Under the pieces are notes generated by a model, which saw nothing but the letters and a program-made list of their open reading frames with translations, was not told the DNA's origin and did no database searches. Of a stretch of 64,000 nt of DNA, positions 3,244 through 63,462 are shown piece after piece; position 1 is the stretch's first letter; the number at the start of each line of letters is the position of its first letter. A program made the translations under genes and the position numbers. This stretch comes from Amphibalanus amphitrite. Its lineage: Eukaryota. Location: the NCBI RefSeq assembly GCF_019059575.1, contig NW_024881521.1:601297-665296 (forward strand), given 5' to 3'.

Positions 3244-3496
3244 GTTCGACAACCCGGCGTCCACGTCTGACACGGCGACCCGGTGGCTGACCTACAACTA
3301 CCTGTTGGGTCTGAACACGGCCCTACTACTGGCTCCCGAGCCGCTCTGCTGTGACTGGACCATGGGCACCGTGCCGCTGCTGACATCTATCGGTGACCCG
3401 CGCAACCTGGCCACCCTGGCGACCTATGCTGGGCTGGCACTGCTGGTGTGGCGCGCCCTGGCCTCAGAGGATCGTGGATCCGATGTGGTTATCATG
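3244..3496 (+). CDS. TMTC-family exon (RFDNPASTSDTATRWLTYNYLLGLNTALLLAPEPLCCDWTMGTVPLLTSIGDPRNLATLATYAGLALLVWRALASEDRGSDVVIM)
   Basis: ccccag acceptor, atg|gtgaga donor; completes AG+G=Arg from previous exon; FDNPA..DWTMG..DPRNLAT is TMTC-like. Confidence 0.75.
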
Positions 3497-8649: not shown

Positions 8650-9705
8650 GTGAGTCAACGGGTCTGTCGGTGATACATTGATCAATGGGTGTTGCTGATT
8701 TTCCCGGCCTCTTCTTTTTCATCAGTCATTTTCCGTGAGTCAGTCCGTTGTTCATTTAGTCGGGTAGTTATTTCAGCCAACCGGTGAGCTAGCCTGCCAG
8801 TCATTCACCGTGTCATTTACCTACCCATTCCCGGCGGCCCAACCCCACCCCTCCATATTCTGGCTGTTGGAGCCTGTTGTGGCTGGGGTTATGTAGACAG
8901 TATACACACTGTCGTTGCGGCGTTCGGTCAGTTGCCGGGCGGTGTCCGGTGGTAGTATTTCCTTTACCACCCTGTTGTGTGCAGTGTGGGCCGATGGCCT
9001 GTCGGCCCGCGATACGGCGTCGGGCGCCGTGTTACCATCCGGGCCGCCATGGCGACTGGGACGGGGTGTGGGGGCCGCCGACCATCCGATTCCCGAGACA
9101 AGGATGTGAGATGGGGTGGCCGCCTGGCGCACACGGCGTGGGCTTATCTTCACTGACGGGCTGTGTGCCAGACGCTATGTTGTGTAGCTCGCAACAGAAC
9201 AAAACGTGATTGATTAGTAAACGTAATGATAACATCCTCCTCTCCGTCTTCGCTTCTTCCTGGGCTCATTTCGCTGTGAAACTACCGCAGTATTTGGTTG
9301 TCTAACACACCATCTCCTCTCCCTTCCTCAGCTGGGCGTGGTGTGTCTGGAGCAGGGCCTCCAGGCCCAGGGACTGGAGTTGTATGCTCTAACACCCCTC
9401 CCTCCCCCTTCTCTCCTCTCTGTTACAGCTGGGCGTGGTGTGTCTGGAGCAGGGCCTCCAGGCCCAGGAACTGGAGTTGCGTACTCTAACACCCCTCCCC
9501 CTCTCTCCTCTGTTACAGCTGGGCGTGGTGTGTCTGGAGCAGGGCCTCCAGGCCGAGGAACTGGAGTTGTATGCTCTAACACCCCTCCCTCCCCCTTCTC
9601 TCCTCTCTGTTACAGCTGGGCGTGGTGTGTCTGGAGCAGGGCCTCCAGGCCCAGGAACTGGAGTTGCGTACTCTAACACCCCTCCCCCGCTCTCCTCTAT
9701 TGCAG

Positions 9706-9987
9706 CTGGGCGTGGTGTGTCTGGAGCAGGGCCTCCAGGCCGAGGCGCAGGCCTACCTGGACAGAGCGCTCGAGCACGACCCCGACCACCAGCAGGCGCT
9801 GCTCAACTCGGCGGTGATTATCCAGGAGGAGGGGCCCCCGGAGCGGCGGCCGCTCGCCTACCAGCGGCTCCACCGGCTCATCGCGCTCCGACCGTCGGCC
9901 GTCGGACTCGACAGGGTCTACTTCAACCTGGGCATGCTGGCCATGGACGACCACGACCTGGTGCCCGCCGAGGCCTGGCTCAAAAAG
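9706..9987 (+). CDS. TMTC-family exon, TPRs (LGVVCLEQGLQAEAQAYLDRALEHDPDHQQALLNSAVIIQEEGPPERRPLAYQRLHRLIALRPSAVGLDRVYFNLGMLAMDDHDLVPAEAWLKK)
   Basis: ttgcag acceptor at 9700-9705, aag|gtgagt donor; this is the last of five tandem acceptor+exon-start copies, and which copy is used in vivo cannot be told from sequence. Confidence 0.65.
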
Positions 9988-12535: not shown

Positions 12536-12667
12536 CGTACAGACGAACTTGAGCAGGTCGACGGCGTCGACACCCACAGAAGCGGCGTCTCCCCAGAAGA
12601 ACCGTAGCACCGTGACACCCTTCACCACCTCCTCCTCTTTACGCAGGTAGCCGGCGCGACAAAACTC
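12536..12667 (-). CDS. NSMCE3: NSMCE3/MAGE-like exon (EFCRAGYLRKEEEVVKGVTVLRFFWGDAASVGVDAVDLLKFVCT)
   Basis: matches MAGE homology domain C-terminus (..YLEYRQVP..YEFLWGPRA..KMKVLEFVAK pattern); gacag acceptor, acg|gtgaga donor. Confidence 0.75.
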
Positions 12668-13031
12668 CTGTCGACGTCAGAAGCCAGTTAGTCAAATCAT
12701 AGCCGGCGCGACAGAAATCCTGTCGACGTTAGACAAACTACACATTATAGCTGTCGCGACAAAACTCCTGCCAGCGTCAAACACGAAAGATCATAGCCGG
12801 CGTGACAGAACTCCAGTAACACCTCAGTGAGGCGTTCAGCTGCCGTGACAACAGTCATATCAGTCACTTATCAGTCATCAGTCACACCAGTCATTACTCG
12901 TCAGCACGGTCCGCCACCCCTGGTAAAAACCTCGGTCATACGTTCCTGACTAGCCTAATGCACTTCTCACCGGCCTCATAATTAATGGTAGTGTGAAGAG
13001 GCTGACTAGCCTCACAGCCCCATTGACTTAC

Positions 13032-29756: not shown

Positions 29757-29942
29757 CATCACTGACCTGCTGCGGCTTTCCGAGCTTGTAGTGCGCCTCG
29801 GTCTCGTCTCTGGTGAGCAGGACGCAGTTCCAAGGCGTCCAGGGCTGTTCCACGTCCCAGCGGCAGAGCAGCAGCTCATAGAGGTCCGGATCGGCGCTCA
29901 GGCAGGACTGGCCGCCCCACAGCGACAGCACCAGGTGACGGA
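29757..29942 (-). CDS. IQ-motif gene exon (ESDFRHLVLSLWGGQSCLSADPDLYELLLCRWDVEQPWTPWNCVLLTRDETEAHYKLGKPQQ)
   Basis: tgttacag acceptor, cag|gtcagt donor; ORF 29614..29961. Confidence 0.65.
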
Positions 29943-30361
29943 AATCAGACTCCTGTAACACATGAAAGACAGAGGTGGTATGTCAGACAGGACTGACCGC
30001 CCCACAGCGACAGCACCAGGTGACGGAAGTCAGACTCCTGTAACACACAGACAGAGGTGGTATGTCAGACAGGACTGGCCGCCCCACAGCGACAGCACCA
30101 GGTGGCGGAAGTCAGACTCCTGTCACAGAAACAAATACATGTGTCAGACTCATTAACCTGTCCCATACCCAGATCATAAGTCACACGTAGGCCTCGCACA
30201 CACATGGGTAGCGAAAGTCGTACACCTTTCTCACACCGTATGTAGCGAGGAAAGACTTGCCAGTGACCAAACCCCACGCACGCTCCCCGTACTTCGACTG
30301 CAGGCTGTCCTCTCTCACATATACTAGAGTACCACTGACCCGTCAGTAATCCTCCGCTGAC

Positions 30362-32669: not shown

Positions 32670-32789
32670 CTGTTTGCGCCGTTCTGCGTCGTCCACAATC
32701 CACTGGAGCACGACATCCCGCTCCCTGGCCATCCGCTGTACCCGGCGACGGGCCAGCCAGCGGCGCCAGTACTTCTGTAGAAGAATCGC
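32670..32789 (-). CDS. IQ-motif exon (AILLQKYWRRWLARRRVQRMARERDVVLQWIVDDAERRKQ)
   Basis: IQxxxRGxxxR-like calmodulin-binding motif (LQKYWRRWLARRR); ccaccacag acceptor, cag|gtcaga donor. Confidence 0.65.
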
Positions 32790-32904
32790 CTGTGGTGGAG
32801 AGCGTGAATATCGTCAGACAGGGGAGTAACACGGGCCAACCAGCGGCGCCAGTATTTTTGTAGAACGATCGCCTGTGGTGGAGAGGGAACATCGTCAGAC
32901 AATT

Positions 32905-35450
32905 GGGGCCTATTGTTGTTGTTGTTGTTGTTCCCCCTGGGACCTCCTTACGGAGGACCATAGCCGAGAGGCTCCCTATGGCGAAGGTAGCCGGCCTCCA
33001 AGGCAGCCACCAGGTCGGCGTCCCGCAGCCGCGACGGGTCGACGTGAATGCTGCCAGTTAGCCGCAGGCGGGCGCCAGCGAGGGCCGGGCAGCGGAGCAA
33101 CACGTGCTCCGGCACGTCCGCCTCTTCCCGGCACACGGCGCAGAGCGCCGTGGGGCACCGCTTATCGGGGCACTGCAGGCATGCCACGGAGGGGTGGCGG
33201 CCGATCCGGTGCAGGTATTGGAGCGAGCGGCCCCAGTGGCCCACCCTCCACTGGTGCACCGAGATGGCGGCCTCTCGGTCCTCTCCGGGGATGGGGAGCG
33301 GCAGGGTGCTCCCGAAGATAGCCTTGAAAAAGGAGTCGGGCCAGTTTTCGCGCCACTGACGTGTGGTCGTCCGATGAACTGCCCGTGTCAGGGGCCGAGC
33401 GTCCGAGGGCACGGCGCCCTGGGGCAGGGTGGCCGCTTGCTTGGCCAGGGCGTCAGCGCGCTCGTTCTCCGCCAGCCCGCAGTGAGCAGGGACCCACTGC
33501 AGGGTCACCTGCCGGCGCTCGGCAATGTCCAGCAGCGTCCTCCAGATCGCCGCGCCGAAAGTGGAGGTCTGGGCGGCCGCTCCCGCGCTGAGGAGGCTCA
33601 GGGCGGCTCGTGAGTCAGAGCACGCCACCAGCGGGGCGGGGGACGGCTCATCCCGGACCCGCTCCAGCGCCGCCCTCAGGGCGAACAGCTCCGCACGGGT
33701 GCTGGAGCAGAGGTCTCCCGCCACCACCTCAACCTCGAGAGTCTCCCCCGACGCGGTAAAGATGATGGCGCCGCCCCCTCGCCTCGCCTGACCCCAGCGT
33801 CCGCAGAGCCGTCGGACCAAATCCACGTGGCCTGGGCTGGGAGCGCCGCCAGGTGCTGCCGCGCGGCCTCTCGTCGCGTCTCGTTGGAGGAGGCTCGACG
33901 ACCGCCGGGTCCCACGTCCAGATTGAAGGCGATCGGGCGGCAGGTTGTCCACGGGAGGAGGGGAACCTCGAGGCGCGGCTCCACCGTCACTCCCTCGGCG
34001 CCCGCCTCGATCAGCGCCGATCGCCCCAGTTGTCGCCAGCCGGTGGTAGACCGCAGTCGAGTGGGTGGGTCGGCCTCCGCGACGCGGCGAAGAGGGTCGT
34101 CCTCCGGCAGGGCGAGCGCTCGGCAGAGCGTTCGCGCGGCCAGCGTCTTCCTGGTGGACCATGCTGAAGGGATGCCAGCCTCGGCCAGCAGGGGATCCCT
34201 GGGGGTGGACCTTGGGCATCCGGTCACCACCCGGGCTGCCGCCAGCAGCTCGCGCTCCACCAGCTGAACGTGTGACGGGGACGCGGCCGGGAGCCAGGCA
34301 CCCGCTGCGTATTCAAGGGCTCCCCGGACATACCCGTTCGCGACTGTCCTGAGCTGCGCCTCGCGGAGACCCCAGGCCCGGCCGGTCATCCTCCGCAGCT
34401 GTGCCGTCCGCGGCCGGACCTTCCGCCGCAGCAGAGAGTCGCAGTGGTCTTTAAAGTGTAGAAGTCTGTCGAAGGTCACCCCCAGAAGATGTAGGCTGGT
34501 GCCACCGGTGACCTGCGTGCCGTTCGCCAGGAGTTGCACGCCGCGCTCGTCCCTGCTCCGCTGAGTCAGCAGCAGCGCCTGGGTCTTCTGTCCGGCGATG
34601 GACATCTTCCAGTGCCTTGCCCATCGGGCCAGGGCGTCGGCCGACTTCTGGGCGCGAGCCACCGCAAGCTCTACGGTGGCTCCAGCGCTCAGTGTGGCCC
34701 TGTCGTCCGCATACATCAGGACGTCCGTGCGGTCCGAGGCGTTCCGCAGGGTCTCGATAAGGTCCGCCGCCCAGAGCGTGTAGATGGTCGGTGCCAGGAC
34801 CGAGCCCTGCGGCAGGCCCGCGCGGAACACGCGCTCGCTGCTGTGCGCGCCGTTGACCTCTACGCGGGCCCGCCTGCCGCGAAGGAACCGGAATTTCCAG
34901 GTCGCGAGACATCTGGGGAGGAGCTTGAGGAGCTTCAGGTGCAACATCCGGTGATCGATCGTGTCATAGGCACGGGAGAAGTCGAACGCCAGGAGGACAA
35001 AGCGGTCCGCCGTCACGCCATCCTCCGGGCCTCGTCTCGGCTTGGGGCGATTCCAGCCATCTTGAACCGTTTGGACCAAGCGGGCCAGACTGTCCTCCGC
35101 CGACCTCCCGCGGCGGAACCCGACCTGTTCGGGGGGCACCAGTCGGTCTCGCTCGATGAGGTAGGTCGTCCGGGCCGCGATCATCCGCTCCGCTAGCTTG
35201 GCGATGTGACTCGTGAGCGCGATCGGGCGGTAGCTGCCCACTTGTTTGGGGTCTTTGCCGGCCTTAAAGATAGGGATGATGGTCGCCCGTCGCCATGAGG
35301 CGGGCGTCTCGAGGTTGGACCACGATCTGTTGATGAGTGCCAGAAGGGTCCGGTAGGCCGTCGGTCCGAAGTGCCGCAGGTGTTCGGTGCATACCCGGTC
35401 CGGTCCTGGCGCCTTCTTCGTCCCGAGGTGTCGGATTTGGTCGTCGGATT
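32905..35450 (-). mobile_element. 5'-truncated, frameshifted RNase-H-containing non-LTR retrotransposon (I/R1/LOA-type): RT, RNase H, C-terminal CCHC finger
   Basis: rc ORF 33676..35676: RT motifs (GPD.., FADD-equivalent YADDRA..); rc ORF 32948..34219: RNase H (..WVPAHCGLAENERADALAK) and C..C..H..C finger; (CAA)n 3' tail at 32918-32936; ~70% GC, unlike the host introns. Confidence 0.85.
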
Positions 35451-35883
35451 GGGGCCTGTCTGTGGGAGAGACACACAGCCCAACAAACGACGCCAGTACT
35501 TCTGCAGAACGATCGCCTGCAGAGACAGCGGGAGCATAGTCAGACGCGGGGAGACAGTCACACGGGCCAGCCAGCGACGCCAGTGCTTGTGAGGAACGAC
35601 TACCTGTGAGGGCGAGGGGAAGACTGTTGGTGCGTGTGGGGGGGGGGGGGGGGCACGGCATATCAGCGAGAGGCACAGATTGTCGCTGATATGGACCAGA
35701 CCACTGTCAAGTGTCAAAATAAATTATTTTTACAAGCTAAGCGAAATATGTGAGGGTACTTGATTGTTTATGAATGGTTAAACATAGCGAAGCTAGTTAT
35801 AATTTCCAAAATCCCACACCATGGCTGTAATACTGTTTGTGAGCATGCCGCCAGTGCAAGACCCAGCGCGGCGCCGCTCTCAC

Positions 35884-41243: not shown

Positions 41244-44200
41244 CAGTAGGCGGAACTATGGTCAAGCGTACCCATTTTCGGGAACGCATTTTCGTTCCCA
41301 TGTTTGGGAACGATAAACCCAAATATGGGAACGCCATGTAGGCATTATTTAAAACAAGAAAAAGAACCGTTAAATGACGTCCAAAAAAAAAAAAAAACGA
41401 TCGTGAACCGCCTGATATTTGTCCCAATATTGTTGGGAAAGAGTTTGATATTGTAAGGCCCATCGTAGTTTCAAATCGTTCCCCTATTTCTAAAGCAGTC
41501 CATCATCCGGGCCGCGAGCCCAAATTTGGGAACGCTCTCGTACACTGGCGCTGCAAGCGTTCCTTATTATGGGAACGGCGTACCCAAAATTGGGAACGAT
41601 TTCACCGACGCCTTTCAGGGGCTCTTTTCATTAACAAGCATCACGTCCAACGCCGCAAATTATTGTTAACGCAACAATCATCAGATGACCTTTCCGGCAA
41701 GACCGTCGCATGTTACGCCCGGTCTTCTGCGCTTTTATTCCCGTCGATCTCGCAGCGGGCACGCCCCCCTCTGCAGGATTACGTAGTTCACAACGCTCAG
41801 CGATGTTCAACAAGGTCTTCCATACCTATATCCACCGTCCGCGCCGAGGGTGGAGACATGTCAAGCACCTGTCTGTTTATCACCGATAGTTGACGAGCAC
41901 AAGGAAGTATCCAAAAATGGGAACGCTGAATATGTTACACCCTCAAAACACCTAGTCCCAATGAAAATCTAGTTTTTTCCTTTCTTGATGGGTGTAAGTG
42001 GCAAAAGGCCTGGTAGGATGGGCACGAGGAATGATCGAGATCAGCATAAAAATTATAAATAAGCCACACAAAGCGACCTATATAAGAGAAATTCCCCCAA
42101 AACGATCGTGCTTAGAAACACGGAAGACAAAAATCACGCTCATGACGCTCCTTATAAAACAACGCTTAAAGGGACTGTCCCACCTTAACATTAGATTTGA
42201 GTTGAGATAGCCATCTTGATGGACGTTCTTTGAAAATCAGTGCCGTGAAAACCGTTTCTCCAGCAATTACTTCATCGCAAAGAAATTTGAGTTTGATTTT
42301 GACATCTGTGCAAATAAGTGCCACAATGTATTGGTATAGGCACTTAAATCTGATGACGTCATCAGGCTTTCGAACGTCCGTTAAATGTTTGACTAAAACG
42401 TTTTGTAGCACGCGGTGGTATATGCTGCGTTGCGCGCAACAAATGCCGCACTTTTAAATAAAGTCGCTAGGAACAGCGGAGATCCCAAAAAGTAAACAAA
42501 AGTAAAAGTCTAATATCTTCAAAACCGGTGAATATTTTTCGGTGAAATTTGGTAGATATTCGTTTTCGCTCTTTCTGAACCGAGCGACATCACTTTCATG
42601 CCAATTCATAAACTTTTTTAAAGGTGGGAGGGTCCCTTTAACAGCTAGCATCCAAATAAAATATGTCTTTCCGGGATGATAAAATACAGCTGAATAATTT
42701 TAAACCACTGAAACCGAGTTTACAACAGTAGTTCGGTAAAATCACTGACGTTCCACGCGGTCGTGCGCCCCGACACCAAAAGTCAACAATATTACCTCGG
42801 GACTGTCCGCGTGTTCGCTTGCATATGTCAGCATCTGGTGTCGCTAGTATGAAACTTCATAACCAGGCGAAAATTATTGTACTTGACCTCAAAATGTAAA
42901 AAACGCTTCATTTTCCTTAAAATTGCAAGTTAAATGTAGTATAACCCATGTTTTCACCATTCCGTCATTTCAAAAAATCATTAAAAATATCATTCGACGG
43001 TCAATTTCCTTGTGCAACGGTCAGATTAAAGATAATTTTATAGAGACTTAGTACGTAACCGGACAAATCTTCGTATGGCAATTCTTCGTCGCGCAATTCC
43101 TCGTCCGCATTTCTTCGTCCGCAAATCTTCGTCGGCGCATTTATTCGTGTCGCATAACTTCGTCTCGCATTTCTTCGTAAGCGCAAATATTCGTAGCGCA
43201 TTTTTTCGTATCCGCATTTCTTCGTACGCGCATTTCTTCGTCAAGCATTTTTTCGTCCACGCATTTCTTCGTCTACGCAAATCTTCGTCCGCATTTCTTC
43301 GTCCACGCAAATCTTCGTCTGCGCATATCTTCGTCCGCAAATCTTCGTCCCCGCAAATCTTCGTCCGCAAATCTTCGTCCGCATTTTTTCGTCCACGCAT
43401 TTCTTCGTCTACGCAAATCTTCGTCCGCATTTCTTCGTCCAGCAAATCTTCGTCCCGGCAAATCTTCGTCCGCAAATCTTCGTCCGCCAAACTTCGTCCG
43501 CAAATCTTCGTCCGCAAATCTTCGTCCGCATTTTTCGTCCACGCATTTCTTCGTCCACGCAAATCTTCGTCCGCAAATCTTTGTCTGCGCATATTTTCGT
43601 CCGCAAACCTTTGTCTCCGCTATCTTCGTCTCCGCAAACATTCGTCCACAAATGTGGTTCAATAAAACCATGAAGAAATATCAGACCATCAAGTGATTGA
43701 CGAATTTAATGCATGGAATGGATGATCGAAACTTTTGAAGTCAGGTAGATGGGGTCTGTCCGGTGAAGCTATTGTATTTGGGAGCCGAGAATTGAAACAT
43801 TCCATATCATGTGTCCCGGACATTCTTTTTTCGCGGTCGATGAATGACAATACAATCTCTTGTACCCTCGCCGGCATAGGCGGCGGAACGGGGAGGGCAC
43901 CGGGGCACCGTTCCCCTCTTTAATTTTGGCCTTTTAACAGTAGCCCTATGGGCGTTGCATGGAAAGAATGGGACTAAAAGTCGGCAGTGCCGTGCCCCCC
44001 CCCCCCCCCTAATTGAATGTGTTCCGCCGCTACTGCTCGCCGGACCTATTTGTTTTCTACATATACGCCGGCCGAGGGGGGCGGGTACGACCCCCCCCCC
44101 CCCCCATCGCCGTTTCGCCACTGGTGGAGCTAGCGCGTCGCGGAAAAAACGAGCGTGTGCGCCGTTACGAGACGCAGAGGTTAATACCCGATTTTAAGGC

Positions 44201-45925
44201 CTTCTAGGTCAGGGGTCGGCTTACAGCCCGCGGGCCGGATCCGGCCAGGAGGGTGACGGTTGGATCCGGCCCGCGACCATCTGACGTCCGGCCCGCGCAA
44301 GTTTTGTCTAGAAGTAGAATTAGACAAAAACACCCGCAAATGGTGTTTATAAACTCATGAAGTGTGCGAAGGAAGAACTATTGTGCCAAAGCACATTTAA
44401 GTCACTTTTATATCGGAGTCGATTTCTGAAGGAACCGCGGGCCGGAACACGATGTAAGTCGATGATACCAGCCGCGGGCCGGACGTCAGATGGTCGCGGG
44501 CCGGATCGAACCGTCACCCTCCTGGCCGGATCCGGCCCGCGGGCCGTAAGCCGACCCCTGACCTAGAAGGCCTTAAAATCGGGTATTAATCTCTGCGTCT
44601 CGTAACGGCGCACACGCTCGTTTTTTTCCGCGACGCGCTAGCTCCACCAGTGGCGAAACGGCGATGGGGGGAAGGGGGGGGGGGTCGTGCCCGCCCCCCC
44701 CCCTCGGCCGGCGTATATGTAGAAAACAAATAGGTCCGGCGACGGCGAGCAGTAGCGGCGGAACACATTCAATTAGGGGGGGGGGGGGCTTGGCACTGCC
44801 GACTTTTAGTCCCATTCTTTCCATGCAACGCCCATAGGGCTACTGTTAAAAGGCCAAATTAAAGAGGGGAACGGTGCCCCGGTGCCCTCCCCGTTCCGCC
44901 GCCTATGCCGGCGAGGGTACAAGAGATTGTATTGTCATTCATCGACCGCGAAAAAAGAATGTCCGGGACACAAATGATATGGAATGTTTCAATTCTCGGC
45001 TCCCAAATACAATAGCTTCACCTGACAGACCTCATCTACCTGACTTCAAAAGTTTCGATCATCCATTCCATGCATTAAATTCGTCAATCACTTGATGGTC
45101 TGATATTTCTTCATGGTTTTATTGAACCACATTTGTGGACGAATGTTTGCGGAGACGAAGATAGCGGAGACAAAGGTTTGCGGACGAAAATATGCGCAGA
45201 CAAAGATTTGCGGACGAAGATTTGCGTGGACGAAGAAATGCGTGGACGAAAAATGCGGACGAAGATTTGCAGACGAAGATTTGCGGACGAAGTTTTGCGG
45301 ACGAAGATTTGCGGACGAAGATTTGCCGGGACGAAGATTTGCGTGGACGAAGAAATGCGGACGAAGATTTGCGTAGACGAAGAAATGCGTGGACGAAAAA
45401 ATGTGGACGAAGATTTGCGGACGAAGATTTGCGGGGACGAAGATTTGCGGACGAAGATATGCGCAGACGAAGATTTGCGTGGACGAAGAAATGCGGACGA
45501 AGATTTGCGTAGACGAAGAAATGCGTGGACGAAAAAATGCTTGACGAAGAAATGCGCGTACGAAGAAATGCGGATACGAAAAAATGCGCTACGAATATTT
45601 GCGCTTACTAAGAAATGCGAGACGAAGTTATGCGACACGAATAAATGCGCCGACGAAGATTTGCGGACGAAGAAATGCGGACGAAGAATTGCGCGACGAA
45701 GAAATGCCATACGAAGATTTGTCCTGGAATCGACTTAGTAGATACTTAAATTAGCGTGCACTTTTTTGAGACGTGATGCACTAATGAGTTTTAGTGGGCG
45801 AACGGCCGAAAAATTAACTTCCGTTCTCATAAATGGGAACGCCCGTTCCCATATTTGGGAACTCCGTTCCCAAAAATGGGAACGTTCCTATATTTGGGTA
45901 CTCATGACCATAGTTCCACCTACTG
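41244..45925. mobile_element. ~4.7 kb non-autonomous TIR DNA transposon; ~30-bp TIR CAGTAGG(C/T)GGAACTATGGTCA(A/T)G(C/A)GTACC and GGGAACG subterminal direct/inverted repeats
   Basis: left terminus 41244-41273 is the reverse complement of right terminus 45897-45925; multiple T(T/A)GGGAACG motifs at 41285-41620 and 45815-45890; no transposase ORF. Confidence 0.7.
43061..45735. repeat. Foldback-like long palindrome (~2.7 kb, arms ~1.3 kb, centre ~44390); arms consist of a minisatellite of ~12-13 bp units (cgcaaatcttcgtc / cgcatttcttcgtc); centre is itself a GC-rich hairpin
   Basis: 43061-44200 is the reverse complement of 44570-45735; the RKSSSA/ADEDLRTKICG 'ORFs' on both strands are translation artefacts of the tandem array. 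Confidence 0.85.
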
Positions 45926-49257: not shown

Positions 49258-49560
49258 CCTGATCAGGGCTGCGGAGTCGATGGATTTTCGGCGACTCCGA
49301 CTCCGACTCCGGCTTTCAAAAACCAGCTCCGACTCCGACTCCGACTCCGGGCAGAATTGTCAACTCCGACCGACTCCAACTCCCAACTCCGACTCTGCAG
49401 ACCTAGCAGGGCTGCGGAGTCGACAGATTTTCGGTGACTCCGACTCCGGCTCGGGTTTCTAAAATCGACTCCGACTCCGACTCCGACTCTGGTCACAACT
49501 GTCGACTCCGACCGACTCCGACTCCGACTCCGACTCCGCAGCCCTGCATATGATCATGAC
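49258..49560. repeat. two tandem ~150-bp units, each bounded by inverted CAGGGCTGCGGAGTCG / CGACTCCGCAGCCCTG termini and filled with (GACTCC)n hexamer repeats
   Basis: direct reading; hairpin-forming minisatellite or MITE pair. Confidence 0.8.
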
Positions 49561-51083: not shown

Positions 51084-51407
51084 GTGAGTCGCCCTCGCGG
51101 AACCGTAACACACTAAACCCGTATGTTAATTAAACGTCAGTCGCTTGCTTGACGTGTCTGGGACACGGTGAGTCACCGATTATCTGAATCGTCCACCGGG
51201 CCCTTCTCCGTATGTGAGTCGGCGACTGGTCCCGGACGCGATGTTTAGCGCCGCCGGACCAAAGCTACGCGTAGCACACGGCAGCACACCGTAGCTACGG
51301 TTTGCTGCATGGACGTCTGTAAAGGTACACACCCATCCTGTCCCAACGGACGGGTGAGACACCCCACATCGCCCTCTCACTGCTCAATGTTCCCACTCTG
51401 TCTCCAG

Positions 51408-51611
51408 GAGGCCCGTCTGCGTCAGATCCTGTCTCGACCGTTCAAGATCCCGATCCCGAGTTACAACGGCGCGCGACTGGCGGACCGCCGACTGGGGGTG
51501 CGGCGCACGGGTGCGCGTCAGCCGCTGCACGACCCCGACGAGCCGGGCGCGCTGGTGCTCTACAGTCCGCCGCAGCTCAGCCAACACGAGCAGCTCACCA
51601 TGCAGGCGTCA
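51408..51611 (+). CDS. RAD54L: RAD54L exon (EARLRQILSRPFKIPIPSYNGARLADRRLGVRRTGARQPLHDPDEPGALVLYSPPQLSQHEQLTMQAS)
   Basis: matches human ..[61 protein letters not shown]; 3' boundary (gtgatg donor) uncertain. Confidence 0.75.
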
Positions 51612-51932
51612 GTGATGGGGAGGGAGAGGTCGGGGCTGGGGAAGCCGGAAAGGGGAAACTAGTCTGGGTCATGAGCTCCTATTCAAAAGAGAATGTTGAT
51701 GGCTGACTCGTACTTAACTCTGCCTGAGTCACTTTTGGAGTGATGGGGCAATCACTCGTTTTGACCTCGTTGATTCAGTTACACATACCCTTCCTGTCTC
51801 TTTTTTTATACAATCATTTCATTCCAGTTTTTTTACGATAGCATTTTGGAGTTTTGCAATTTTTCCGAATGTGCACTGCTGAACTCTGCTGCTGAATTGT
51901 GCGTGCCCGCCCCCTGTTTCAGTGACAAGCAG

Positions 51933-51992
51933 CTGGTACACGTGGTGGTGGATCCGGCGCTAAGTAATGTGCTGCGGCCCCATCAGCGGGAG
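51933..51992 (+). CDS. RAD54L: RAD54L exon ([20 protein letters not shown])
   Basis: matches [21 protein letters not shown]; acceptor aagcag (alternative tttcag 10 nt upstream), gag|gtgagt donor. Confidence 0.75.
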
Positions 51993-52248
51993 GTGAGTCG
52001 CCCTGTCTTCTCTCCTCCCCCTCTCCCAGAGTCGGTTTTGTAAGGAAGTACGTTACGTCCCAATCCCTCACAGGGCTGGAATTATTAGGGGTCGTATAAA
52101 GTTTGTCCGCCTGTTCGTCGGTGACAAAGCATGAGTCAGCTTTTGTCCATGATAGGATTTGTCTGCATGATCTGTTTCTGCTCATCGCCGTGCCCTACTG
52201 CTCACAACAATCCCCGCGGCATCACGTTCACCTGTCCGTCTCCTCCAG

Positions 52249-52443
52249 GGCGTCAAGTTCATGTACGACTGCGTGACCGGGCGCCGGATCGAGGGCAGCT
52301 TCGGCTGCATCATGGGCGACGAGATGGGTCTGGGCAAGACGCTGCAGTGCATCACCCTCATGTGGACACTGCTGCGACAGAGTCCCGACTGCCGGCCCGA
52401 GATCGATCGCTGCATTGTCGTCACACCCAGCAGCCTGGTCAAG
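52249..52443 (+). CDS. RAD54L: RAD54L exon, SNF2 ATPase motif I ([65 protein letters not shown])
   Basis: near-identical to human [65 protein letters not shown]; ctccag acceptor, aag|gtcggt donor. Confidence 0.9.
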
Positions 52444-52715
52444 GTCGGTGGCAGGGCGACGTGGATCTCGCGAGATGCTGCATTACGTACCGGTAGATAG
52501 CTAGTGACGATTTTCATCGGCTGTTCCTAGTTCTTTTCGAAGATGTTCTGCCTATAACAGAGCTTCGGTCAGTTTGCTATAGAAAGCCCAACTCAGGTCA
52601 TTTTTCATTTGCGACTCGTCTGTATCAAATGTGATGCCAGTCTGTTGTGATTACGTTTTTGCACCTATCATAATATGTCCTTACGATGTCTTTCTATGCC
52701 CGCGTTTTCCACCAG

Positions 52716-52934
52716 AACTGGTACAACGAGATCAGCAAGTGGCTGTCGGGCCGGGTCTCGGCGCTGGCGATGGACGGCGGCGGACGGACGGAGGTGGTCC
52801 GACAGCTCGAGGGGTTCATGACGCGCACCGGCCGCCGGCCCGTCAACCCCATCCTCATCATCTCCTACGAGACGTTCCGCATCCACGCGGCGCTGCTGCA
52901 CCGCGGAGAGATCGGACTCGTGCTCTGTGACGAG
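52716..52934 (+). CDS. RAD54L: RAD54L exon ([73 protein letters not shown])
   Basis: matches [73 protein letters not shown]. Confidence 0.9.
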
Positions 52935-53186
52935 GTGAGAGGGTGATGAGAGGACTGGCGAGACTAGGGGTCGATGGCAGGATGTGAGAGTCGGTGCAAG
53001 AGCTGGGACTCTGTAATGGAGTGAGAACGGTGGTGAGATATTTGGTGATTGTCAGATTGGGATGTCGAGTGGGTTAGTGAGAGGGCTGGTGCTCTTGTAG
53101 TAGTGGCAAATGTCAAATTTATTTTATCGTCTTACATCGATGGATGATGGCCTGATCAGGTGTCTTCCTCCCTTCCCTGACAATAG

Positions 53187-53327
53187 GGTCACCGTCTGAA
53201 AAACCACGAGAACCAGACGTACTCGGCACTGATGAGTCTCAACTGCCGACGGCGTGTCCTGCTCTCCGGCACACCCATCCAGAACGATCTGCTCGAGTAC
53301 TTCAGTCTGGTGCACTTCGTCAATGAG
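53187..53327 (+). CDS. RAD54L: RAD54L exon ([47 protein letters not shown])
   Basis: matches [47 protein letters not shown]. Confidence 0.9.
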
Positions 53328-53577
53328 GTAAGGCTGGGTGTGGCGACAGCATATTGCACTTGATGTGTCACGAGCAGCAGATGGCTCTTGGTTTGGCGAA
53401 ACCCCGATAAACAAACGGCGATAACATAATGCGACAGTGAGTGGGTGTGGCGACCATAGTGGCGACAGCATAGTACGGCTGACCGACGCGGCATATGGCT
53501 GGTGATATCTCCAATTCTCACTCGCATGTTGGAGCCTTTCACAGCGACCTCTCTCGACCCTCTTCGTCCCTCCACAG

Positions 53578-53714
53578 GGCATTCTGGGCACTGCGAGCGA
53601 GTTTAAGCGTAAGTTCGAGACGCCGATCCTGCGGGGTCGTGATGCTGACGCCACCGATGACGAGCATAAGAAGGGCAACGAGCGCCTCCAGGAGCTGCTG
53701 TCTATCGTCAACAG
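53578..53714 (+). CDS. RAD54L: RAD54L exon ([45 protein letters not shown]-)
   Basis: matches [46 protein letters not shown]; ends phase 2. Confidence 0.9.
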
Positions 53715-54113
53715 GTGGGCGAGACTGGGAGGCGGTCGGTAGAGGAAAGGATATTTTAGGTGGGGTGGCTTACGAGCAGTTTTCAAAGGATAGGCATTCT
53801 TATTCAAAGAAATCAAATGAGTTCTCTGCATCTGTTATGGTAGCTATGACACAGTAATCTTACCATCTTGACACAAATATCTGGGATCGAATCCTAATTA
53901 CAGAAGCTGCTTGGCTTTTGGGGTTGTATTATGCTCATTTCGTTGACTGATAGCAAAAAGGCGCTCTTCGAGCATCTACCCAATTTTCCCGACGATCATT
54001 GACATCGGATCAACCGTCAATCATCAAACGACCAATCAGCCATTTTCCGGTTTATTTTCTCTATCAGTGAAGCGTTTTCACCATGACTGACATGCAACTG
54101 TCGCTGCCCTCAG

Positions 54114-54274
54114 GTGTATCATCCGCCGCACGGCAGCGATTCTCTCCAAGTACCTGCCGGTGAAACAGGAGCTGGTGGTGTCCTGTCGTCTCACCGACTG
54201 CCAACTGGCGCTCTATGACGCCTTTATACGCTCGGACGCCGTGCGTCGGAGTCTGATGGGACAGAAGGGCAGCG
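54114..54274 (+). CDS. RAD54L: RAD54L exon ([54 protein letters not shown])
   Basis: matches [40 protein letters not shown].. Confidence 0.85.
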
Positions 54275-54703
54275 GTACGTACAGGGTGCTGAGATGCAGA
54301 TAACGATGCGCGGGGAGAGAGTCGTGATTTGGGCGTGACTTCTGCGTCGATTGACACTGATGTATGGACTTACTTAGCTCTATTATTTAGATAATACGAG
54401 GGTCAGTGCTTGTCTGAAACTAAAACTGACTACCACCGCGAGTCGCGAATGCTTATAAACATAAGTGTCGATTTCTGCTGAGTTGCGGGTGCCCGTACAC
54501 TACAGATCCTCCGCGACCCTAGCAGTGACCTTGACCCGCACCGTCTGTTATGGCTCAAAAAGTCAAGCCGGAGTTGAATTGGGAGAGCTTGGCCACCTCC
54601 AGTTCAGCAAAAATCGTTACCTATGCCTAAGAATGTGGAGTGGATTAAATGGCGCGGGCTGGTAGCGATTCTAGCCTATCATTTCACTTTTCTGCACCGC
54701 CAG

Positions 54704-54854
54704 GTCACGGCAAATCGACTCAGTCGGCGCTGTCCGCCATCACCAGTCTGAAGAAGCTGTGCAACCACCCGGACCTGATCTACGAGAAGGTCACTGAGCC
54801 GGGCAGTGAGCTGCGCCATCTGCTGCAGCTCTATCCAGACGGACACTCGACAAA
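54704..54854 (+). CDS. RAD54L: RAD54L exon (GHGKSTQSALSAITSLKKLCNHPDLIYEKVTEPGSELRHLLQLYPDGHST-)
   Basis: matches ..SSITSLKKLCNHPALIYDK..; cgccag acceptor, aa|gtgagt donor. Confidence 0.85.
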
Positions 54855-55396
54855 GTGAGTCGGGGACTCGGGAGGCAGAGCTAACTCAGACAGTCAGACG
54901 GACACTCGACAGAGTGAGTTAGAGAGTCAAGACGAACTCAGACAGATACTCCGTGAGTTTGTCAGGGATGACAGTCCTGCCCAGACGGACTCGCGATATT
55001 AGAGGCTGTCGGAAACTAGCAAGGTCCGTATAGGTTACAAAGTAGGGGCATCCCGTGAAGCAACTGAATGACTAACCTGCAAACACCACCACAGTATATC
55101 ATTCTCCCCTCCTGTGTCCACCAGGCGTGTCCGCGTCCACTCGTATCTGAAATTCCGCAGTCCGCACCCGCCTGTCCGCCAGACGAGTCCGTCCGGAGCT
55201 GTCCGGCAGCTGGGTGTCTGTGTCAATATCTACCCGCCCCTGTCCTCCAGGAGAGTCCGTCCGGACCTGTCCGGCAGGGTGTCTTTGTCCTCTAATATCT
55301 ACCCGCCCCTGTCCTCCAGGCGAGTCCGTCCGGAGTTGTCCGGCAGGGTGTCTGTGTCTTCTGATGTGTCTAATACCCCCTCCCTGTGTCCACTAG

Positions 55397-55595
55397 ACGC
55401 GTCCGTCCGGAGCTCTCCGGCAAGGTGTCGGTGCTGGACTACCTGCTGGCCCTGGTGAAGACGCAGACCAGCGACAAGGTGGTGCTCGTCTCCAACTACA
55501 CGCAGACACTCGACCTGTTCGAGACCCTCTGCCAGATGCGCAGCTACTGCTTCGTCCGGCTCGACGGCAGCATGACCATCAAAAAACGCGCCAAG
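55397..55595 (+). CDS. RAD54L: RAD54L exon ([67 protein letters not shown])
   Basis: matches [65 protein letters not shown]; acceptor (cactag) is the last of four tandem copies. Confidence 0.85.
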
Positions 55596-55847
55596 GTGGG
55601 CGATCGCCCCACAAGGGTTAGATACATATTTGTTTGAGGTCGTTTGTGTTGGTGGTATCGCCACACAAGCTATATGACTGGGTTTTGACGCTACTGTCGG
55701 TGTTGGAGCATAGGGCAACTGGCGAAACGCCCTAAGGTCCAATAATTATCATTGATCTTTGCACTCTCTTGGTTAGTTCGATAATATATTTTACCAATTT
55801 TCCGGCTTCCTCCCCACGACCGCCAATCCCGCTCTGCCCGTTTCCAG

Positions 55848-56054
55848 ATAGTGGACCGGTTTAACGACCCCTCGTCTCCCGAGTTTATCTTCATGCTGAG
55901 CAGCAAGGCGGGCGGCTGTGGGCTGAACCTGATCGGCGCCAACCGCCTGGTGATGTTCGACCCCGACTGGAACCCGGCCAACGACGACCAGGCCATGGCG
56001 CGCGTCTGGAGAGACGGACAGAAGAAGCCCTGCTTCGTCTACAGACTGCTGGCG
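55848..56054 (+). CDS. RAD54L: RAD54L exon, helicase C motifs ([69 protein letters not shown])
   Basis: near-identical to human [69 protein letters not shown]. Confidence 0.92.
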
Positions 56055-56321
56055 GTGAGCATAGAGCCGACGTTCAATGTGTCCATAACAGGCTGCATTT
56101 TCCTGTGTTGCATGTCGAGCGCCGATGTTTAATTAAGTCCAGGCGTATTTGCTTCGGTAGTACATAAACTGATCCACCTGGGACGGCGTAAATCAATACT
56201 CATAGTCATTGTCGTATGCGGCATCATGGTAAAGTGGTTCGACATGCAGCCCCTGTAGCATTTTCCCCAACCTCAACATGACTTTCTCGATCTGACGGAC
56301 CTCAATCGTTACTGCTGTCAG

Positions 56322-56482
56322 GCGGGCACCATCGAGGAGAAGATGTTCCAGCGTCAGACGCACAAGAAGGCGCTCAGCTCGTGTGTCGTTGATAACGAGG
56401 AAGACGTACAGAGACTGTTCAGCGTGGCGGAGCTGAAGGAGCTCTTCAAACGCGAGGACACCATCTGTGATACGCACGACAG
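56322..56482 (+). CDS. RAD54L: RAD54L exon ([53 protein letters not shown]-)
   Basis: matches [42 protein letters not shown].. Confidence 0.9.
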
Positions 56483-56948
56483 GTGAGCGAGAGGTGACGG
56501 TCGGTCCGGACTCCTGATGCACATGGCATAGGTCACGGACGGCCGTGGGCTATCCAGGCTGGGATTACAGCGTTCGTGAGACTTTCACAAATCGAAGGTC
56601 CGGCTGTCATGAAATCATGTTTCAGGCTTTGCCGTAAGTCATCGGTGAATATTTCAGCTGTGATGGCTGCATTCCAGTTGTGGGCCTATAGTCTGTTCCA
56701 ACTCAAGCTTGCGGTCGGAGTTTCTTCGGCAGATCGCTCCTCCGCTCAAGAATTTCGTCTTGAAATGTAAGAGCTGTAGTTATATACGGAATTCACGCAC
56801 TGCTTTCAGCAGGACACTTCGGCTGCAAGCTTGAAACGGAACAGAGTATAGTATCAGCAGTCTTATCTATATTTGCCGCTACTCTGCTTCCTCTAGCCAT
56901 GCACAAATCATCGCTTTACGGCCGACTGACCGCTCCCTCCCTCTCCAG

Positions 56949-59714: not shown

Positions 59715-62700
59715 TTATGTCATTGCTCTCCCTCGTCCGACACTCCAGCGGACCAACTCACCGTCCGCAGTGTAGTACGAAGGCATCCGCTGAGCAGCAC
59801 TCGCTGCCGCACTACTCCTCTCTGGCGCGGCTGGGGAGCCGTCCACAATCCGTCGCTGCTGCTGCTGCTGCGGTGCCGGCCGCGCCGCCGCCGGGGCTGC
59901 CGGCCGGCCGCCGAGCGCCGCACTCAGCGCTGCACTGAGCACATCCCTCGCCGGCTCACCAGCCGCGTACAGTCCCGACTGACCGCTGGTTGGGGCCGAG
60001 TCCTGACGGGGCAGCGAGCTGCGGCGGCCCGCCGACCCGGCAGATACACCCGGGTAGTGGGGCTGCGCGCGGCCTGCCGCCTGGCTCAGCTGGGCCAGGG
60101 GGTCGGTCCGGGAGGCGGCCGAATCGTGACGAGACACGGCGTGACCGAGCAGGTCGTGACGTGACGACGCCGAGCCGAGATCTCGAGACAGATGACCAAG
60201 GGCGGGGTCATGTCTGGAGGTGGGCTGACTCAGGGAGTCACGCCGGCCGCCGGACTGACTCGGGAGCGACTCTGGGCGGAGAGTCGACTGACCGAACGAG
60301 TCCCGCCGTGAGCTGAGTCCCAGTGGTGGCTCCTGTCGTGGCGAGCCATGTGAGAGCTGAGAGTCGGAGCGGGAAAGGCGACTCTCCTGGCGGGGACTCT
60401 GGTGAGAGAGCAGGTGGGGGTCCTGACGGGAGCTCTGATGGGTGAGATGGGGGTCCTGGCGGAGTCCCTGGTGAGAAAGGTGGGGCTCCTGCCGAGGACT
60501 GGGGTGATTCAAATGGGAATCCTGCCGAGGGCTGGGATGATTCAAATGATGATCTTGGCGAGGACTAGGATGATTCAAATGATGGTCCTGACGGGGACTA
60601 GGGTGATTCATATGGGAATCCTGGCGGGGACTGGGATGGTTCAAATGATGATCTTGCCGGGGACTCGGGTGATTCAAGTGGGGATCCTGGCGGGGACTGG
60701 GCTGGTTCATGTAGGACTCCTGCCGTGGACTCGGATGGCCCGCATGAGGCTCTTGCCGCGGACTCCTCTGAATAAGCTGCGGCTCCTGCCGCGGACTGCG
60801 ATGGCTGAAATGCGTCTCTTGGCGAGCACTGGGCTGGCTAAAATGCGACTCCTGCCGTGCACTGGGTTGGCTGAAGTGTGGCTCCTGCCGCGGACTTGGC
60901 TGGCTGAAGTGAGGTTCTTGTCGCGGGCTCGGCTGACTGAAATGAGGTTCTTGCCTCGGACTGGGCTGGTTGAAGTGCGGTTCTTGCCTGGGGCTGGGCT
61001 GACTGAAGGTGGAGTCCCGCCGCCCGCTTTGTTGGCTGACCGCCTGCTCATGTCTCGAGCCGAACCCACCCGTCAGCTGGGGGTCCGCGCGGCCCACGCC
61101 GTGCTGCGCGAACACCGGCGGGCGGTGGTGTGGCGAGGCCGGTGACGGCGGGTTGGGCGCCGGCGGCGGCGGCGCCGGGTCAGCGCGCGGCGCAAAGTGC
61201 GCCATCAGACCCTCGGCCTGCTCAATCCTGGAGCGGGGCGCCGGATCGGCGCGGGCCCCGCCGCCACCCGGCCGGTGTCCGCCGCCGTACGGGTCCGGAC
61301 TGAAGGCTGAGCGGGATACAGCCGGCTGCTGCTGCTGCGGCTGCTGACGGGTCGGCTGCTGAGGCGCCGAGCCGCCCTCAAACGCTGCCAGAACCGCAGA
61401 ACGGGACGGCGCAAAACCGCTCTGAAGATTGGTGGCCACAGATCGTGCCGGCGATACTGGCTGCATCTCCGGCGAGAACGGCGACGAATGGGTGCCACTG
61501 AACGGCGAGCCCACTGACGTGCCCTCCGGGGAGAAAATGTCCGCCTGGCGCGCCGCCAGCTGGAGAATGCTGCTGCGTGCCGGCGGAGAGGCTGCCTCCT
61601 TCAGCTGGTTGAAGCTCATCAGGTCCTTGATCACACAGTCGAGCTCCTCGTTCAGCTGGCCACCGCCACCAGACAGGTCCAGACCCTGGTCGGCGGGCGG
61701 CTCGGGCGGCGGCGGGGGCGGCTGGGGCGGGGGCGGCGGCGGGGGCGGCGGCTCGGCGGGCGGCTCTGGCACCGGTGGCTGCCGGCGGGAGTCTCCGCCG
61801 CCCCGACCGTCCGTCAGACTGGAGCGCCGGCCGGCTCTGGCGGTCTCAGCCGGCTCCGACCAGCACTCACCACTGGGGCGGCGCTCCCCGTCCGTCAGCG
61901 GCGAGAAGAAACTGTTTGTGATACTGTCCGTGCTCGCCTGCCGACCGCTCAGGATCGCATCCATGGCGGCCGCTCCCACACTGTCCGCACTGGCTGTCCG
62001 GGCCCGCTCGGGCGCCTCGTCCCTGACACCACTGTCCTCCCCGCCCCCTCTGCTGATCACCGAGCCGCCGCGGTCGCCCCCGACAGTCCGTCCCCCTATC
62101 ACCTCCTCCTCCCAGGGTGCTGATACACGGCCGTCACCGGCGCTGTCCAGCGCCGCCAGCCGCTCCGTCAGACTGTCCGTGCTCGGCCGGCGCACAGACA
62201 GGTCGGCCGCAGCCGTGGTCGGAGTGCCAGACTCCGAGCTGGTGCGTCGCCGGCCCACCGTCGGCTCCGGGCTCACACACAGCGAGAAGTCTGCCTCGCT
62301 GCCACCCATGATGGAAGCCACCGCGTCGTTCATTTCGGCTTCATTGATCTCCCGGAAGCGTTTCTTTTTCTCTGCCTCCGCGGCGGCGGTTGCAGCTGCG
62401 GCTGCTGTCGCTGCCTCGTCGTCCGTCGGCTCGACCCCGGCCGCAGCCGTCGGCTGGCTCTGAGATCTGCCATACAGGTGGATCTTCTTGGGGCTGTGGT
62501 GACGGTCGGCGGCGGGCTGCTGCGGCGCGGCCGGCGCGCGAGGCTCGGCGGCCCGCAGCTGCTCCGGGGACGGCAGCAGCGGCGGCCCGCCGGCGCCACT
62601 GAGACTGGCGCGGCGCGGTGGCGACCGATCGGCGGGGGTGGCGGCGGGAGCGGCAGATGAGGCGTTAGCAGCGGCAGCGGCGGCGGAGGCATTAGCAGCG

Positions 62701-63249
62701 GCAGCCGCCTCCTGCTGTCGTTGCTCGTGAGAACGCTGAGCCGAGCTGCTCATCCCCTGCCGCAGTTTCTCCAGCTCCAGCTGAAATCCTGACGTCACCG
62801 CCGGAGTTTCCACCGGAGGTACTGTTGCGGCAGGGGGCGCCGCCGCGGCCACCGGCGCAGCGGGCACGGCGCTCGGGGCAGAGGTGACGGCAGGACTGGC
62901 TGCAGCCGGATCCCTGGCCGGCGCGGCGGGAGGGGTGGCAGCGGGCGCAGAAGGCGCCGCCGCAGCCGCCGGCGGGGTCCCACCGTTCTGGAGCCGGTGT
63001 TTCGGGCTGGTAGGCCGGGTCGTCTGATGAGCGGCCTGATGGGCGGCTGGAGGTGCAGAGCTCCGCTCAGATCCGCCGCTTGAGGGATGCGAGTGCTTTG
63101 GTCGCTTCTCGCCTGGTTTGCGGCCGGGCCCCGAAGGCTTTGAGCTATCAGACTCCGGCTTTGGACTGCGCTTCTTCTTCATCGTCTTTCGTTGTAAGTT
63201 GGTGGCGTCATCAAAGGCAGTCTGGAGCCGTTTCAACTCCGCCTTATAC
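59715..63249 (-). CDS. 3.5-kb terminal coding exon of a Pro/Ser/Ala-rich low-complexity protein (~1178 aa from this exon); contains tandem 11-aa coding repeats (QPSPRQEPHFS x~7, then NHPSPRQDHHL x~7)
   Basis: rc ORF 59715..63263 with no stop across 3.5 kb of 70% GC sequence; upstream tttgtctgtttacag acceptor at 63250-63264 implies the exon begins at about 63249 (phase 2); stop at 59715-17. Confidence 0.7.
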
Positions 63250-63462
63250 CTGTAAACAGACAAACACGGAACCCGTCAACTAATGAAGAATCATCAGGCA
63301 AAACATGCCCATGTGCGATATCATCAACATTCGCGACGCGTAGTGTTTCCCTCTCGTTCTCTTCTTCCCCTTCCCTCTAACTACCTGACGACCTCAGTAC
63401 TGCTGTCCTCCGGTACCCGCGCCCTCCCTCACTCACTCTCTCCAATCTAGGCATCCACCCAC

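Follow-up and report, generated by a model that had tools for sequence, protein, structure and literature searches.

RAD54L of the barnacle Amphibalanus amphitrite carries a head-to-tail repeat of the 3' end of intron 9 together with the first bases of the tenth coding exon. We read this array, with a probability of roughly 0.78, as a mirage-type minisatellite, that is, a young and lineage-specific tandem duplication across the intron 9/exon 10 junction, whose upstream copies are non-coding decoy acceptors. Only the last copy is continuous with the rest of exon 10; therefore, only the acceptor at 55397 can yield a functional RAD54 protein. Unless another sequence is named, coordinates are those of the window, the whole 64-kb stretch of genomic DNA analysed here, and the features of RAD54L lie on its + strand.

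The repeated boundary of RAD54L intron 9

The open reading frame translated from 55397 matched zebrafish Rad54 (PDB 1z3i) with an E-value of 4e-26, and a 670-residue protein built from the window is 99% identical to P0121, the annotated RAD54-like protein of A. amphitrite; both results back the RAD54L identity put forward in the original prediction. The same assembled protein is 90% identical to P0122, the RAD54-like protein of Pollicipes pollicipes. Exact spliced mapping of P0121 onto the window gave 13 coding exons and 12 GT-AG introns. Coding exon 9 (54704..54854), which was also located by tblastn, reads ..LKKLCNHPDLIYEK..LQLYPDGHSTK, and its final ~19 nt (CAGACGGACACTCGACAAA) belong to a donor-side repeat unit. 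Coding exon 10 (55397..55595), placed by the mapping and by the 1z3i match, encodes the helicase C-terminal lobe. Between them, intron 9 (54855..55396; phase 2, GTGAGT...cTAG) spans 542 nt and exceeds the other 11 mapped RAD54L introns, which measure 250-466 nt; boundary-derived repeats fill over half of its length. Exon 9 ends in phase 2 (ACA AA|), and joining it to 55397 gives exactly the annotated protein sequence, in which HSTK is followed by the exon 10 residues; the annotated protein thus uses the acceptor at 55397. The same exon 9/10 junction is present in Pollicipes P0122, in a genomic contig without intron 9 (L027), and in P0015, P0018 and P0025, RAD54L-like fragments on other barnacle-derived contigs that lack introns and may be processed.

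Two side observations concern the gene as a whole. Intronless RAD54L-like fragments with indels and truncations (P0015, P0018, P0023, P0025 and P0054) were found on 10-20-kb metagenome contigs; all of them have the canonical exon 9/exon 10 junction, and they are probably processed pseudogenes of other barnacle genomes. Half of the RAD54L introns (6 of 12; window 51084-56948) measure 250-272 nt and none is shorter, which suggests a sharp lower bound on intron length in A. amphitrite. The introns of Daphnia RAD54L (L029), at ~60 nt, are unlike those of A. amphitrite RAD54L, which are at least 250 nt long.

At the acceptor side of intron 9, TRF reported a repeat at 55171-55362 (period 69, 2.8 copies, 86% matches, score 277), and the repeat self-comparison revealed five in-register copies that start at 55094, 55152, 55220, 55289 and 55366, with spacings of 58, 68, 69 and 77 nt. 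The five head-to-tail units occupy 55094-55433, and each joins ~32 nt of the 3' end of intron 9 to up to ~37 nt of exon 10-like sequence, so that in every unit a pyrimidine tract and a CAG or TAG precede 26-37 nt resembling the start of exon 10. The exon-like part begins at 55125 in decoy unit A1 (55094..55151; ..ctcccctcctgtgtccaccag|GCGTGTCCGCGTCC..), at 55183 in A2 (55152..55219; ..cgcctgtccgccag|ACGAGTCCGTCCGGAGCTGTCCGGCAGCTGGGTGTCTGTG), at 55251 in A3 (55220..55288; ..cccctgtcctccag|GAGAGTCCGTCCGGACCTGTCCGGCAGGGTGTCTTTG) and at 55320 in A4 (55289..55365; cctCTAATatctacccgcccctgtcctccag|GCGAGTCCGTCCGGAGTTGTCCGGCAGGGTGTCTGTG). The authentic unit (55366..55433) contains the branch motif CTAAT at 55370-55374, a pyrimidine tract, a cTAG that ends at 55396, and the first 37 nt of exon 10 (ACGCGTCCGTCCGGAGCTCTCCGGCAAGGTGTCGGTG); only this copy, with its exon start at 55397, runs on into conserved RAD54 sequence. 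The tandem copies of acceptor plus exon start that had been predicted from the sequence are therefore borne out by TRF and the self-comparison, as four upstream copies plus the authentic one. The predicted placement at exon 10 also holds in that the array unit combines the intron 9 3' end with ~37 nt of the tenth coding exon's start, and the pseudo-ORF at 55114..55458 exists as described. The original prediction had counted three copies with ccag acceptors; in fact, the CAG is kept in all four upstream copies.

The copies differ in age. The central copies A3 and A4 are 83-93% identical, and for the edge copies identity to the reference copy is 60-75%. A1 and the authentic copy share an intron end, ..cctgtgtccacYag, which is the ancestral one, and otherwise diverge more. 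In A1, the oldest decoy unit, the 3' splice region resembles the authentic one and the exon-derived part has decayed. An interior that is turned over while the edges age is the usual pattern of minisatellite turnover. Within the 64 kb, the 32-nt core of the unit is confined to 55253 and 55322, and it had no match in 100 shuffles, indicating that it is neither a chance similarity nor a dispersed repeat. A transposon-derived or dispersed (introner-like) repeat was rejected as a candidate, given that the core 32-mer, with up to 3 mismatches, is confined to the array within the 64 kb and the unit comes from local exon sequence.

Minisatellites are error-prone in assemblies, and mis-collapsed or mis-expanded reads or haplotype stitching might in principle have made the array. 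Over 7 kb, a second A. amphitrite record (L005, GCA_009805615.1) agrees with the window at 99.97% identity, with 2 differences, neither in the repeat; because of this near-identity it is not an independent allele, and its agreement does not count against such an artefact. However, the copies differ from one another by 7-60% and by indels, unlike collapsed or duplicated reads, and analogous arrays are found in independent assemblies of other barnacles, one of them in two samples whose sequences (L002 and L003) are identical over 1404 nt. We consider an assembly artefact very improbable.

The donor side of the same intron is also affected. Self-comparison and a donor scan revealed a donor-side decoy at 54895..54928 (CAGACGGACACTCGACAGA|GTGAGTTAGAGAGTC), a copy of the exon 9 end and its 5' splice site, which is 85% identical to the original at 54836-54869 (exon 9 end + GTGAGT) and lies 59 nt downstream of the real donor with its GTGAGT core intact at 54914. 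Read-through of the real donor leads to an immediate TGA, and use of the decoy donor adds 59 nt and shifts the frame. Further into the intron, 54981..55005 appears to be an inverted partial copy of the central acceptor unit without the 20-nt pyrimidine tract and the AG. Complementary bases number 13/14 with 55320-55333 and 11/11 with 55289-55299, and the duplex energies of these two arms are -23.9 and -13.9 kcal/mol. The gapped inverted-alignment score of intron 9 was equalled in 14 of 200 shuffles and is thus not above them, so the inverted copy is defined by its two ungapped arms only; alternatively, 54981-55005 can be read as a degenerate third donor-type copy.

Under the minisatellite reading, a tandem duplication across the junction would have come first, followed by expansion and homogenisation of the interior copies. 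Replication slippage, template switching or unequal exchange may have been the origin; the inverted partial copy and the direct duplicates at both ends of the intron favour slippage or template switching over simple unequal exchange.

Reading frame, splice signals and predicted RNA structure

Joining exon 9 to 55320, 55251, 55183 or 55125 adds 77, 146, 214 or 272 nt, respectively. None of these lengths is divisible by 3, and each junction leads to a premature stop within or before exon 10; consequently, the repeats give no protein isoforms by simple alternative site use. This settles the question of frame that the original prediction had raised, as no upstream acceptor keeps it, and its fallback, a non-coding minisatellite, fits the frameshift and stop that every decoy produces better than a source of isoforms would. 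In-frame isoforms were accordingly rejected as a candidate on the frames, no decoy offset being divisible by 3. For all four decoys the stop lies upstream of later exon junctions, and decoy-spliced transcripts would be candidates for nonsense-mediated decay (NMD). Use of a decoy would thus give an mRNA lengthened by 77-272 nt, with a shifted frame and a premature stop, which would be expected to be removed by NMD, and the decoys would be tolerated because the outermost site still gives the correct mRNA. The array is probably neutral or mildly deleterious rather than regulatory.

A coding role for the repeats themselves was also considered. The copies translate to RVRP(E/D)LSGRVS, and all three 31+28+28-nt segments together make 87 nt, which is in frame as counted from the sequence, so that a protein-coding repeat or cassette micro-exons might insert RVRPELSG-like peptides. 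This is hardly credible: no single decoy acceptor restores the frame, the internal GTs that follow ..GGCAGG reach donor-matrix scores of less than 2, the insertion would hit the conserved helicase lobe 2, and the extra residues are present in no homologue among the top hits. Recursive splice sites were rejected as well, because a GT at +1/+2 is missing from every decoy (cag|GCGAGT, cag|GAGAGT, cag|ACGAGT and cag|GCGTGT).

Acceptor strength was compared on a crude weight matrix, for which the 23 remaining RAD54L acceptors of A. amphitrite and Pollicipes served as training sites. The authentic acceptor scores 0.6, against a leave-one-out mean of 8.6 for the training sites (sd 3.9, minimum 1.4), while the decoys score 7.4-10.2 on the same rough 23-site matrix. 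At position -3 the authentic acceptor carries a derived T, where 22 of the 23 training sites have a C, as do the intron 9 acceptors of L001, L002, L004 and Pollicipes. The AG is kept in 4/4 decoys despite 36-60% divergence elsewhere in the unit. A branch motif of the form yTnAy is found, ~24 nt upstream, only in A4 (CTAAT, 55292-55296) and in the authentic copy, and is missing from the other three decoys. A4 is therefore the main competitor, being the sole decoy that combines a canonical branch motif, a pyrimidine tract and a CAG. Going by signal strength alone, the decoys ought to compete, and a purely neutral reading leaves that unexplained. From the annotation and the protein conservation, we infer that the cell mostly uses the authentic site at 55397; a protein search across the exon 9/10 junction returned no transcript-derived fragments of A. 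amphitrite.

The strong decoys could alternatively serve regulated unproductive splicing, in which the cell would turn to them deliberately, outside the germ line for instance, and NMD would tune the dosage of RAD54. In line with this, a CAG and a pyrimidine-rich tract are present in all four decoys, whose scores exceed that of the authentic site; each decoy shifts the frame and brings a premature stop; and A4 has the complete set of branch motif, pyrimidine tract and AG. Regulatory poison splice sites are normally conserved, however, and the array is absent from Pollicipes, L004, L001 and L002. Arrays of the same type occur in unrelated genes, and the yTnAy branch motif is lacking in 3/4 decoys. 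A regulatory function is unlikely on this evidence.

Another way to reconcile strong decoys with a weak productive site is RNA structure. In the predicted RNA ensemble of 54826-55445, the branch motif of A4 is paired with 54995-55005 in the inverted partial copy (helix probability ~0.95, unpaired ≤0.05), and the adenosines of the authentic branch site stay unpaired (0.96-0.99). A further predicted helix, with a probability of 0.8, joins 54838-54844 at the end of exon 9 to 55401-55407 at the start of exon 10. Hypothetically, an RNA helix would mask the branch site of the best decoy, A4, and this would explain the site choice. Extended to a rival explanation, helices would pick the authentic splice-site pair and mask the best decoy, and duplication would prefer exon/intron borders. 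The predicted exon 9/exon 10 pairing, the 11/11 helix that buries the A4 branch motif with the authentic branch adenosines left free, and the placement of the RAD54L arrays at junctions in 8 of 8 cases would favour it. Against it, the structure is a thermodynamic prediction with a minimum free energy (MFE) z-score of just -2.4 on 20 shuffles, the gapped inverted score is within the range of shuffles as given above, and the three other arrays in which inverted partial units were sought, as a general device for masking decoys, have no comparable inverted copy. Moreover, chance alone would put an estimated 40-50% of tolerated duplications across a junction. We regard this combined explanation as quite unlikely and retain the minisatellite with non-coding decoys.

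Separately, exon 9 closes with CCAGACGGAC and exon 10 opens with GTCCGTCCGG, two sequences that are reverse-complementary at 9 of 10 positions (54834-54848 vs 55397-55411). Complementarity of the exon ends, read by eye, is seen in L004 too (3093-3102 vs 3469-3478), that is, in the balanid-like sequences and not in Pollicipes. It may be due to chance or to an intron-bridging helix.

Boundary arrays in the window and in other barnacles

The RAD54L array is not the only one of its kind. Self-comparison of the window revealed 12 local direct-repeat clusters, six of which straddle a splice junction, namely the two in RAD54L and four acceptor arrays. The first of these, in a TPR gene (9329-9745, + strand), has five tandem copies of 90-97 nt, each made of a pyrimidine tract, a CAG and ~40 nt of exon start; exon-like starts lie at 9332, 9429, 9519 and 9616, the authentic one lies at 9706, and a full-length TPR_2 match crosses the junction made with the last copy. 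The decoy at 9616, 90 nt upstream of 9706, is in frame and open, and could add 30 residues. At a probable exon on the - strand (12648-12814), three to four copies of 48-52 nt contain an acceptor and ~20 nt of exon start (EFCRAGYLRKEEEVVKG..), with exon-like starts at 12767 and 12719, the authentic one at 12667 and a GTGAGA donor at 12535; this exon had no Pfam match and is recognised by its open frame and splice signals.

The other two arrays are found in one gene on the - strand, which encodes the annotated 601-residue P0242. At 29898-30131, three copies of 82-85 nt carry an acceptor and ~55 nt of exon start (ESDFRHLVLSLWGG..), with exon-like starts at 30119 and 30037 and the authentic one at 29952. 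P0242 reads ..AAVCLIQ|ESDFRHLVLSLWGG.., indicating that the last copy, at 29952, is used, and the 93% identical P0241 ORF has a decoy and a real copy at the same 29952-type junction, with a 90-nt unit. At 32748-32901 and 35450-35620, four copies (exon-like starts 35603, 35516 and 32872; authentic 32789) repeat the start of an exon that encodes an IQ motif (AILLQKYWRRW..). P0242 reads ..LRTDK|AILLQKYWRRW.., so that the last copy, at 32789, is the real acceptor. This array is split by a ~2.5-kb non-LTR retrotransposon with a reverse-transcriptase ORF (33676-35676) and a (CAA)n tail; on either side of the element, at 32902-32911 and 35448-35457, lies the 10-bp target-site duplication AGGCCCCAAT. 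The authentic last copy is thus confirmed in three arrays outside RAD54L, by the TPR_2 match, the IQ motif and P0242. The like architecture in unrelated genes points to a generic mutational process, with the RAD54L array as one instance of a genome-wide habit.

Two further repeat-rich features of the window were noted. A pair of ~590-bp arrays with a 14-16/30-nt unit (CAAATCTTCGTCCG..) at 43064-43653 and 45131-45721, in opposite orientation and with ~1.5 kb between them, resembles a foldback-type element with long satellite-like inverted termini. Downstream of RAD54L, a 1182-residue low-complexity ORF on the - strand (59715-63263) contains 33/99-nt coding repeats (..SPRQEPHFSQP..) at 60385-61008; L001 and L004 have ORFs in a similar position (1280 and 1269 residues).

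Barnacle host DNA within metagenome assemblies yielded four additional versions of intron 9. In L001, whose exon 10 protein sequence is 98% identical, a 75-nt unit consisting of the last 54 nt of exon 9 and the donor is present in 12.4 near-perfect copies, alongside a single acceptor. L002/L003 contain more than 10 donor units of ~38 nt, and L004 and Pollicipes (L006) have one donor and one acceptor in intron 9. In L027, a TARA metagenome contig, exons 9 and 10 are fused (225-580) and introns 8 and 10 are present, and the absence of intron 9 is most simply a loss. Decoy acceptors are absent from L001, L002, L004 and Pollicipes L006, which indicates that the acceptor array of A. amphitrite is young and lineage-specific. 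The copy-number invariance named in the original prediction does not hold for intron 9 across barnacle species, as the number of decoys ranges from 0 to about 11, and boundary arrays have arisen in this intron repeatedly, with different units. A scan of JGI metagenomes with GTCCGTCCGGANNTNTCCGGCA gave 20 single-match contigs, none with a RAD54 exon, and these are chance hits.

Other introns of the gene are hit as well. Pollicipes has nine copies of a 44-nt unit (14 exon nt + donor) in intron 8 and a donor-adjacent array in intron 7, and L004 has 2.6 copies of a 33-nt donor unit in intron 4 and a donor-adjacent array in intron 5. In the four other barnacle sequences, every RAD54L tandem array starts at or spans a 5' splice site (L001 593-1520; L002 1-450; L004 312-397 and 756-850; L006 6265-6393 and 6769-7166), with units of 33-75 nt in up to 12.4 copies. 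Across five barnacle sequences, all eight arrays within RAD54L gene bodies therefore touch a splice junction. Repeat arrays at 49264-49545 of the window, 5888-7159 of L001 and 8909-9119 of L004 have no junction assignment. RAD54L of amphioxus (L028) and Daphnia were uninformative as controls: the former has small deep-intronic arrays, upstream hairpin-type repeats and no mirage, and the latter has short introns and one small array.

Placement of all eight arrays at junctions may exceed what random placement and selection would give. The estimate of ~40-50% junction-spanning by chance assumes introns of ~250 nt and units of 40-80 nt, and the sample is too small to tell a targeted mechanism from duplication at random followed by selection. 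A bolder and doubtful proposal starts from the frequency of barnacle boundary minisatellites, with six in the 64-kb window in addition to every RAD54L array in five sequences. It holds that duplication is targeted to borders and that RNA structure, namely an exon 9/10 helix that closes the intron and an inverted partial unit on the branch site of the strongest decoy, keeps the spliceosome on the weak authentic acceptor. Border targeting might come about by template switching during repair where allelic homology drops, from a conserved exon to a hyper-divergent intron.

Implications and comparison with known systems

The minisatellite reading would extend mirage minisatellites from cephalochordates, to which they were thought possibly specific, to an arthropod, and the arrays described above suggest that they are common in barnacles. 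Amphioxus and barnacles are both very polymorphic, and with two distant marine invertebrate lineages to compare, the origin of mirage arrays becomes testable. The RAD54L array is also a natural experiment in 3' splice-site choice: the authentic site, which has to be used, is weaker than the four intact decoys that precede it, one of which combines a complete branch, pyrimidine tract and AG module with a better consensus. More generally, boundary arrays provide material from which new exons, intron sliding and in-frame insertions can arise, as illustrated by the in-frame decoy of the TPR gene, and the pseudo-ORFs and pseudo-splice sites they create can mislead gene prediction in barnacle genomes.

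In the model of Rogers (1989), as discussed in PMC3087553, introns are gained or slide by tandem duplication of an AG|GT segment. The RAD54L array is similar in that an internal tandem duplication yields extra, potentially usable splice signals beside an exon. Unlike in that model, intron 9 pre-exists, being at the same position in Pollicipes, and the duplication lengthens it. As in NMD-coupled alternative 3' splice sites and NAGNAG acceptors, several acceptors share one donor and non-canonical use leads to a premature stop. However, the spacing is 58-77 nt and not the 3 nt of NAGNAG acceptors, and unlike NMD-coupled alternative sites, the RAD54L decoys are not conserved between species and are whole duplicated branch-to-exon modules.

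In intron 7 of human F7, a 37-bp VNTR duplicates the 5' splice site, and among the identical donors the most upstream one wins by 5'-to-3' scanning (Borensztajn et al. 2006, PMC1557585). The main RAD54L array instead duplicates the 3' splice site and its most downstream site is the productive one; hence, the F7 rule is not transferable, and the array is an acceptor-side counterpart to the F7 donor model. True analogues of F7 are limited to the small donor-side duplicate (54895-54928) and the donor arrays of L001, L002, L004 and L006.

The closest parallel is found in amphioxus, where mirage minisatellites were described in the globins BflGb6/BflGb9 (Ebner et al. 2010, PMC3087553) and PGBD5 (Pavelitz et al. 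2013, PMC3902484) and, as these two papers relate, in Adh3 (Canestro et al. 2002 NAR 30:2871). No report of mirage minisatellites in barnacles, in any arthropod or otherwise outside amphioxus was found in the searched literature. The amphioxus arrays are head-to-tail, with units of 10-160 bp that span an intron/exon boundary, either 5' or 3'; their AG/GT signals are mostly intact and splicing is reported as normal, with the terminal authentic copy being spliced (PMC3087553, PMC3902484). Their central copies are homogenised to the exclusion of the edge copies, haplotypes differ in copy number, and allelic as well as somatic instability is described (PMC3087553, PMC3902484). The RAD54L array shares the head-to-tail arrangement, a period (69) within the 10-160 bp range, and units made of intron edge, splice signal and exon edge, and its terminal copy at 55397 is the authentic boundary, continuous with the exon; the donor-side unit, with the exon 9 end and GTGAGT, is alike. 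Unlike the amphioxus mirages, the RAD54L array resides in an arthropod, a thoracican barnacle, where both ends of one intron are hit and an inverted partial unit is present.
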